Notes: generated by a model from the sequence alone, not told the origin. Shown: positions 25,981 through 27,910, counted from the stretch's first letter. The stretch is 37,308 nt of DNA from a virus (IMGVR_UViG_2684623059_000004), one strand, 5' to 3'. Numbers and translations are program-made.

Positions 25981-27741
25981 TTAGCTATTTAACATTAATT
26001 TATAATGTTCCTTTATATCTTTTATAGCATCAAAAATACAACAAAATGCCTTAAAATCTATTTTCCGCTTTTTATCTCTAACAACCCTCATGGAAAAAAT
26101 ATGCTTCCCATATTCCGTTTTTGAGTCTCCATCATTATTTTTGTTGAATTTCTTACCATCAATCTTGATATCTAAAATATCTTTAGGGAAAAGATCCTCC
26201 ATTGAAGTTTGTTCGCCGGAAGGACTCAATGGTGTGAGAACTATATATAAATTATAGAAAACATGAATATATTTCATCTTTCTCATTTCAGTTACATCGT
26301 CTGGGCAGCTTTTAACTTTATTGCGCAGAAAATTAAGTAAATCACTTGGACCTGTATCATTATCAAGAACCATAATCACTGGCTGTTTTGGAACAGAACC
26401 ATAATAAGAAGCATAATTATTTTTATAACGTTCTACAAATTTTTTCAGATCTGCAGTTCCCCCAGAAAGATCTAAAAAATATTTGGTCTTTTCATTAGAT
26501 TTAAATATATTAAGATTTATTTCTTTCTTTTTACTATCTGTTTTTTCTCTAAACAACTCAGGATATGATGTCTCCAAAGAATGCAAAGCAGCCTTCAAAT
26601 ATATCCGATCAGTCTTCCCTTCTGTAATTATCGTAGGACAGGTGTTGCCATGAAAAAATTTATAGTAAATAAATTTACTATATGCTTTTTCTCGCGCATT
26701 CAACTTTAATTTAAAACCATACAAAGTCGCATTAGTCAATACATATCTATCAGGTTGCTTGTTCAGTTTTTTCTTTATATTGTTAAACTTATCAACTTGA
26801 TCAATAAAACCAAACATCCCCTCAAGTTTATCCAGACCTCCTGAAACTAAAACACCATTTTCATCTGGCACTTTATATTCACCTGTACGATACAAAGCAT
26901 GTGCCAACGCCCGAGTTTTTTTATAATAACATCTATCAATATTAACGATTCTGTTAACTGTAAGTCCCGTTACTTCTTGCCTTGATGTCTTATACGTAAG
27001 CCTAGTCTTTGAATCATTTATTTCGAATCCAGAGTTTTCTATTTCTTTTACCAAAACTTTTCCCAAAACAACCCCTTCAGGTTGCACAGTAGCCATTTCT
27101 AACGGAAATGTATTTTTATTTGTAGAAATTGTTATATCATCAGCATATCTGCTATAAGTACATCCATATTTTTTAGCCAGTTTAGCTAATCTCATATCCA
27201 TAATATTGCAAATTAGATTTGAGATAACAGGAGAACATGGACTTCCCTGGGGGAGGGTTCCATTATAGCATGCAGCTTTTGCAAGTGTCGTTGCCACCAC
27301 AGGATTTAATAAAAAATCCTGATTGGAAAGAAAATATCCTCTAACTCGTCCGAAATTAAAGCTTTCAAAAAAATCCTTAAGATCTATATTTAATATTATT
27401 TGTTTGCCTCTATGCTTATAAGCATTTAGGATTATTGATTTTCCCCTCTCAAAACCAAAGGAATAGTTGTTACTAATTTTCCTTATAGCAAAGATCTCAT
27501 CTCTACAATCAGAAAGTAAGTCACATATTCTTCGTTGGATGTCCTTCAACCGGTCTGTAGGTGCAGAAATAGTCCTTACCCCTTTTCCTTTCTTCGGTAT
27601 TGTAAATTGAGTGTATTGATTATCCGAGCCGATTCTATATAGAACGTTAGTTAAAAATACCAACTTAACATCTAAAATTTTAGCCAAGTCTTCACGTGAA
27701 GTAGCAGCCCTAAGTGCGTCAAGTTTAGATGTTTTTGTCAT
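25981..27741 (-). CDS. retron-type reverse transcriptase fused to a C-terminal Toprim domain
   Basis: RT motifs LPQGSPCSP and RYADDITIS; Toprim motifs IITEGKTD and VLDNDTG; 586 aa from Met44; longest ORF (to 27870) runs through the upstream RNA region; AT-rich. Confidence 0.85.
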
Positions 27742-27779
27742 TTCTTCTTCATCCCAGAGGAAAAAAGGCCAAGGAGAAA

Positions 27780-27910
27780 CGCATGCAGGCACTCCTTCGC
27801 ACAGCACACCTGCCGTATAGCTCTGAATCAAGGATTTTAGGGAGGCGATTCCTCCTGCCATTAAGGCCACTGGTTGCGATTCACAACCAACAAATCTGCC
27901 TACATGCGTG
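27780..27910 (-). ncRNA. candidate retron msr/msd non-coding RNA
   Basis: inverted repeats cgcatgcaggca (27780-27791) and tgcctacatgcg (27896-27907) flank about 105 nt containing hairpins GGAGGcgattCCTCC and GGTTGcgattcaCAACC, directly 5' of the RT on the same strand; exact ends not determined. Confidence 0.5.

Follow-up and report, generated by a model that had tools for sequence, protein, structure and literature searches.

On comparison of its sequence, a locus in the viral DNA IMGVR_UViG_2684623059_000004 (37,308 nucleotides, analysed at full length and referred to here as the window) proved almost identical to retron Ec67 (Retron-Eco2, type I-C). An earlier note, made without database searches, had described an RT-Toprim retron like Ec67/Eco2 that was probably a known system; this was correct, and the system is already known rather than new, with 584 of the 586 protein residues identical, an exact match of the non-coding RNA (ncRNA) and agreement among the curated models. 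We are highly confident that the locus represents retron Ec67, a well-studied E. coli defence system against phages that consists of one gene; here it is cargo of a P2/186/Fels-2-like prophage and occupies its usual site, with cos on one side and the portal gene on the other. What is shown here is that sequence and layout are identical, that the catalytic residues are intact and that the RNA structure is conserved throughout the family. Coordinates of the features are listed in Table 1.

Table 1. Functional elements of the retron locus and neighbouring prophage genes, in window coordinates.
Feature	Coordinates	Strand	Remarks
Retron ncRNA (msr-msd)	27779..27910	-	RNA position 1 (27910) to a2 end (27779)
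a1 arm, ACGCAUGUAGGCA	27897..27909	-	Pairs with a2
Branching guanosine G15 in CAGA	27896	-	Numbering of PMC12916289 and PMC12405507; 2'-OH would prime msDNA synthesis
msr stem-loop G20-U42	27869..27891	-	Minimum-free-energy fold and covariation
msd template	27793..27859	-	RNA A118 down to G52; 67-nt msDNA
a2 arm, UGCCUGCAUGCGU	27779..27791	-	Preceded by conserved (A/G)GAG
RT-Toprim fusion gene	25981..27741	-	586 aa plus stop
RVT_1 domain	26956..27600	-	Residues 48-262; Pfam
YADD	27136..27147	-	Residues 199-202; RT catalytic motif
Toprim E374/D378	26608..26622	-	Catalytic residues
Toprim D460/D462	26356..26364	-	Catalytic residues
Trimer-contact loop	26701..26769	-	Residues 325-347; role from PMC12916289
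Putative promoter of msr-msd-RT	27917..27946	-	Read from sequence
Likely terminator, imperfect hairpin then AUUUUUCGUU	25938..25976	-	Between the convergent RT-Toprim and portal genes
Terminase large subunit	23148..24914
Portal gene	24911..25939	+
Replication protein gpA	29548..31962
D12-class Dam methylase	31959..32876	-
cos-like cohesive-end site, GGCGTGGCGGGGATACGAG	27980..27998	-	Pattern match; upstream edge of the cargo slot

The RT-Toprim gene and its start

The ORF on which the earlier note was founded was present in the ORF list of the window as a 629-aa frame with a GTG start (25981..27870, minus strand). Codon 44 of this frame is an ATG at 27741, translation from which yields 586 aa and a stop, with the product ending ...MLNS-stop at 25983..25981; the statement that the longest ORF reads through the RNA region and that a start at Met44 gives a 586-aa protein was thus borne out by translation, and the ATG at 27741 is the true start. 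All four of the RT and Toprim motifs quoted previously, including VLDNDTG, were found in the protein and contain the catalytic residues. The YADD motif and residues E374, D378, D460 and D462 are all intact in the window protein and are invariant in an alignment of 20 proteins (45-86% identity); the four Toprim residues are those mutated in the published dTOPRIM variant (PMC12916289). Pfam reported only the RVT_1 domain in the 586-aa protein and did not detect a Toprim domain; the Toprim assignment is made because it is supported by PADLOC, NCBIfam, the PDB entries and the catalytic residues, while Pfam is silent.

Among ORFs of at least 40 aa, RT-Toprim is the only protein-coding gene in the interval from cos (27980) to the portal stop (25939); the others found there are short (42-82 aa) and overlap either this gene, the ncRNA region or portal on the opposite strand. 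There is no separate effector gene in the cassette, and RefSeq also annotates one gene there.

Identity of the protein

The protein is identical at 584 of 586 residues, over its whole length, to the chains deposited in the PDB as 'Retron Ec67 protein' (9I2F, 9I2G, 9S1F and 9LM3), from which it differs at two positions, with V in place of I at residue 172 and Y in place of H at residue 341. Y341 lies within loop 325-347, the only protein-protein contact in the cryo-EM structure of the Eco2 trimer (PMC12916289). In the 20-protein alignment position 341 varies and V is the residue that most of the family has at 172, so that both substitutions look neutral, although Y341 is in the trimer-contact loop. 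The NCBIfam model NF038237 (retron_Ec67_fus) was matched with 705.8 bits against a cut-off of 450, over model positions 1-572 of 572, and the best PADLOC model was RT-Toprim_I-C (E = 2.7e-217, full length).

The non-coding RNA

The published Eco2 construct (ncRNA plus gene start; 399 nt shown in supplementary file 1a of PMC12956279) matches window positions 27916..27518 on the minus strand exactly, so that the complete ncRNA and the beginning of the gene are the same as in a working, published retron. RNA position n corresponds to window coordinate 27911-n. The order of the retron layout that had been recognised beside the gene requires correction: on the transcribed (minus) strand it reads a1-msr-msd-a2-RT, with a2 ending 37 nt before the ATG.

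The inverted repeat reported previously is real and its a2 arm was correctly placed (27780..27791), but the a1 arm, given as 27896..27907, was shifted by one base: CGCATGTAGGCA lies at 27897..27908 (minus strand), and its partner in a2 has one mismatch. The pairing extends to 13 nt (27779-27791 with 27897-27909; 92% complementary), the mismatch being a G.U wobble in the RNA. Folding of the RNA region, which had been suggested as a check, gave -59.3 kcal/mol for the 134-nt RNA compared to -39.8 +/- 3.6 for shuffled sequences (z = -5.4), and none of 200 shuffles was as good. Of the two small hairpins described in the earlier note, the first (27891..27869) is real and conserved, while the second (27855..27841) has no covariation support. 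This second hairpin (GGAGG/CCUCC) folds in the window sequence, but 53% of cells were paired in homologues, equal to the shuffled and slid controls, and it was rejected as a conserved element.

Individual residues were checked against two cryo-EM papers (PMC12405507 and PMC12916289). The published residues fall on the correct bases (A6-A14, G15 at 27896, A16-U19, G20-U42, G43-U51 and G52 at 27859 to A62), and the CAGA context of the branch site has been published for Ec67 (PMC6868368). In the cryo-EM structure of Eco2 the msr stem-loop bridges adjacent RT domains of the trimer (PMC12916289, PMC12405507). The predicted msDNA is the plus strand of 27793..27859, TCCTTCGCACAGCACACCTGCCGTATAGCTCTGAATCAAGGATTTTAGGGAGGCGATTCCTCCTGCC; its bases are as published at dT1, dA56, dT57 and dC67, and C is present at positions 15, 17, 31 and 37, the positions (dC15/17/31/37) to which the DenB cuts have been mapped (PMC12916289, PMC12405507). 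The oligonucleotides of eLife supplementary file 1b are framed by the same msDNA sequence.

Folded alone as DNA, the 67-nt msDNA was no more stable than its shuffles (z = 0.05), which fits the inter-subunit three-way junction seen by cryo-EM and not the classical hairpin drawing; the two structural papers (PMC12916289, PMC12405507) disagree on the path of the msDNA. GATC is absent from the 67 nt, as read directly, and the Dam methylase of the prophage therefore has no target in the msDNA. No Rfam (release 15) retron match was obtained with the whole window at gathering thresholds or with 27700..28000 at E <= 10, so the curated RNA library could not be used to establish membership.

Conservation of the RNA structure among relatives

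Thousands of relatives are present in the database, the closest of which are named 'retron Ec67 family' in their sources. A profile built from the 20 proteins was used to gather 80 loci from different species, of which 79 could be tested, and for each the top long-range inverted repeat within the 330 nt preceding the RT was computed with no prior. Most loci share the form seen in the window: the repeat spans 122-146 nt and has arms of 11-15 nt, of which the 3' arm stops 21-75 nt ahead of the protein match and the 5' arm is followed by GAUU. The same a1/G/msr-hairpin/a2 layout was observed in 70 of the 79 diverse RT-Toprim loci.

To these 70 loci the window and the divergent copy from E. coli were added, and the resulting 72 sequences were aligned. 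A14-G15-A16, G29, G111-C112, A115, G117-A118 and U120 are invariant, and both the a1/a2 stem and the msr hairpin were recovered by RNAalifold. Compensatory changes on both sides were found in 17 of the 19 stem pairs; 98.8% of cells were paired, compared to 30-41% with the partners slid, and 250 cells carried compensatory changes, compared to 50 +/- 8 in shuffles. The covariation check proposed for a1/a2 in homologues therefore came out in favour of the repeats, which are conserved with compensatory changes in the 72 loci: 11 of 12 aligned pairs changed on both sides and 98.5% of cells were paired, a count that is partly circular because the loci were picked for an a1/a2-like stem. The msr hairpin, which was not used in locus selection and is free of that circularity, is equally well supported (compensatory changes in six of seven pairs; 99.4% of cells paired).

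At one locus (L057, upstream of 3001; an Oscillatoriales MAG) a1 ends ...GGCA and is followed by AATT rather than GATT, the branching G being apparently missing. It was also observed that Rfam has no matching model, though the 72-sequence alignment gives a well-defined consensus with invariant positions.

Comparison with known retrons

The closest known system is Retron-Eco2 (Ec67; type I-C1) of E. coli Cl-1, NCTC8623 and S10, which shares with the window, besides the ncRNA of the published construct and the near-identical protein, a single-gene architecture, the cos-portal slot of a P2-like prophage and a Dam gene in the prophage. Between the window and NCTC8623, the source strain of one published Eco2 structure, 27 differences were counted, of which 4 are in the coding sequence, 2 between cos and msr and 21 in the backbone upstream of cos.

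Divergent retrons of the Ec67 family (NF038237; E. coli GF4-3, Enterobacter, Vibrio, Shewanella and Pseudomonas) likewise have an RT-Toprim protein of approximately 580-590 aa with invariant catalytic residues and, upstream of it, a1, an invariant A-G-A branch site, the msr hairpin, (A/G)GAG and a2; they differ in protein sequence (39-86% identity) and in the sequences of a1/a2 and msd, and many of them probably lie outside P2-like prophages. Retron-Eco1 (Ec86, type II-A) is likewise a retron RT with msr-msd, and is reported from the same cos-proximal slot of 186-related prophages (PMC6868368); it differs in its distant RT (E = 1.6e-34, residues 16-285), separate effector, filamentous complex and different trigger. 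The RT-TIR (type XII) and RT-protease (type XI) systems are single-gene fusions with a closely related N-terminal RT of approximately 290 residues (PADLOC E about 1e-96), but their C-terminal effector is a TIR or a protease, compared to Toprim in the window; the NCBIfam model Retron_TIR_antiphage scored 265 bits against a cut-off of 600.

Putative promoter and terminator

The ncRNA is preceded by a -35-like element (CTGGAA, 27946..27941) and, after a spacer of 18 nt, by an extended -10 element (TG-A-TATTTT, 27925..27917), and this putative promoter would place the start of transcription at approximately 27910. In 53 of the 72 RT-Toprim loci the branching G is preceded by a TAnnnT hexamer that begins 24-26 nt before it, and in about 42 there is a TTG[ACT] beginning at -46 to -49; if true, such a family-wide promoter-like geometry would make the 5' end of msr a primary transcript end. 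Beyond the gene, the hairpin at 25938..25976 (-14.1 kcal/mol; z = -2.7) is a likely terminator, and phage 186 has its annotated terminator tW at the equivalent place. A generic promoter scan and a consensus terminator scan listed neither the proposed promoter nor the proposed terminator.

Prophage context and the cos cargo slot

The window is a P2/186/Fels-2-like prophage, with capsid scaffold, CI repressor and integrase among its genes. The placing of the retron between the portal gene and cos was upheld, as both the portal gene and a cos-like site were confirmed; the first 13 nt of the latter are the annotated cos of phage 186, and homology to Fels-2 runs from 29600 to 27961, ending just past cos. 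The Dam methylase mentioned in the earlier note was found in the same prophage and is of the D12 class. Both the position of the retron and the Dam gene match literature reports for Ec67: a position of Ec67 and Ec86 between cos and the packaging-gene terminator is attributed to Dodd and Egan 1996 (cited in PMC6868368), and a Dam gene and a 34-kb element to Hsu et al. 1990 (cited in PMC7826664). The position is likewise that of the cos-proximal hotspot between gpA and gpQ described by Rousset et al. 2022.

A copy with at least 98.6% identity was present in 14 of 5426 complete E. coli genomes, and one more carries a 73% variant; all 15 are named 'retron Ec67 family RNA-directed DNA polymerase/endonuclease' in RefSeq, and in the three E. 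coli loci inspected the copy adjoins the portal gene. No record of the phage collection carries the retron, the flanks alone being matched. A search of the window for direct repeats resembling att gave none; the 26-bp repeats described for the Ec67 element are probably located past the end of the window.

Several further observations were made on the prophage. In Fels-2 the cos-to-portal slot, occupied by the retron in the window prophage, holds a different, unannotated hypothetical ORF of 565 aa (L083, 2147..3844; STM2723.1), a candidate for another cargo gene or a defence gene at this site. On the other side of cos, a second cargo slot between a DinI-like gene and cos is occupied by an ORF of 243 aa (28172..28903, minus strand) that begins with a lipoprotein-type signal (MKINNVALPISLAVILTGC...); it is also present in Fels-2 (STM2726) and in many P2-like phages of Klebsiella and Salmonella (approximately 99% DNA identity). 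The three E. coli prophages with Ec67 that were inspected lack it, with window positions 28964..28122 missing in L001 and L002 (blastn against L002 gave many spurious AT-rich matches, and only the main diagonal was used), and no near-identical E. coli match extends past 28121. The ORF matches phrog_1353, the function of which is uncharacterised, while searches of Pfam, NCBIfam, PADLOC and the PDB gave no match. A RybB small RNA gene was located at 2701..2779 (plus strand; 106.5 bits, full length), adjoining a ybjL-type transporter gene (936..2621) and approximately 390 nt before the first phage-like ORF (3166..4266); no second att copy was seen in the window.

Alternative readings

The earlier note had named group II intron, Abi and DRT reverse transcriptases as the classes to be set against a retron RT. 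That the RT belongs to one of these classes (group II intron, Abi or DRT/UG), with the inverted repeat a coincidence, has a negligible probability and is refuted by the PADLOC, PDB and NCBIfam scores together with the covariation. Models of group II intron RTs and of Drt2 are matched weakly, as they would be by any RT, and the scores fall far short of the cut-offs (group_II_RT_mat, TIGR04416, 57.2 bits against 300; Drt2, 42.3 bits against 390), whereas the RT groups with those of retrons: the best 25 of 52 PADLOC matches are all retron RT models, and after Ec67 itself the best PDB matches are solved retron RTs (1.6e-34, compared to 2.7e-07 for group II intron RTs). No group II intron RNA was found with Rfam, and the inverted repeat covaries across the family. 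It is scarcely more credible that the true product is a longer protein of 626-629 aa starting inside msd. The frame is indeed open from 27870, and RefSeq contains coding sequences of 1881 nt (626 aa) in three near-identical loci with a start equivalent to window position 27861 (L001, 6261..8141; L085, 561..2441; L086, 561..2441); against this, it is the 586-aa form that has been purified, solved and found active, homologues from other genera are 579-592 aa in length and align from Met1, a length of 586 aa is also annotated for the divergent copy in E. coli (L002), and the upstream 129 nt vary as covarying RNA base pairs and not as codons.

A decayed or silent Ec67 copy, yielding neither msDNA nor defence on account of the two substitutions or of a lack of expression in the lysogen, is very unlikely. 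Such a reading could draw on Y341, which replaces the H of the studied protein in the sole protein-protein contact of the trimer, and on one base of the putative -10 element (27919) that differs from strain NCTC8623. However, the ORF is intact with all catalytic residues present, the ncRNA is that of the working construct, V172 is the consensus residue and position 341 varies among homologues; of the 4 coding-sequence differences from NCTC8623, 2 are synonymous, and none of the differences is in the ncRNA.

Proposed mechanism

Published work on a nearly identical system is the source for msDNA synthesis, trimer formation, the trigger and the activity of the RNase, all of which would apply to the window copy by analogy; the copy is presumably expressed in its own host. 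One minus-strand transcript would carry the ncRNA followed by the RT-Toprim gene, and a1 would pair with a2. The RT would then prime on the 2'-OH of G15 (27896) and copy from A118 (27793) to G52 (27859), the expected product being a 67-nt single-stranded DNA still joined to the msr RNA. In Eco2 the RT primes at the G15 2'-OH and stops at G52:dC67, and msDNA linked 2'-5' to RNA has been demonstrated with an identical ncRNA and a 99.7% identical protein (PMC12916289, PMC12405507).

The msDNA is predicted to cage the Toprim RNase until a DNA endonuclease of an infecting phage (DenB of T-even phages; A1 of T5) degrades it, whereupon the uncaged Toprim would cut tRNA acceptor stems and other RNAs and so stop translation and phage multiplication. 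For Eco2, caging of the Toprim RNase by the msDNA, cutting of the msDNA by DenB of T-even phages, the implication of T5 A1 by escape mutants, and nicking of tRNA acceptor stems and other RNAs by the freed Toprim are all published (PMC12916289, PMC12405507). The V172/Y341 allele, which changes a residue of the trimer-contact loop, could shift the opening of the msDNA cage, or the 243-aa lipoprotein-like gene might be an unrecognised exclusion or defence factor; both ideas, suggested by position alone, are improbable.

Significance

The retron was recognisable from raw sequence, down to its correct start codon. Descriptions of Ec67/Eco2 date from 1989-1990, of its position in the prophage from 1996, of its role in defence from 2020 and of its structure and mechanism from 2025-2026, and since the system is known in full mechanistic detail, biology gains little from a further copy. 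The by-products of the analysis are the recognition that Rfam is without a model for this RNA and that RefSeq often starts the gene inside msd, an exact coordinate map of every functional element and a 72-locus alignment of the invariant ncRNA positions across type I-C retrons.
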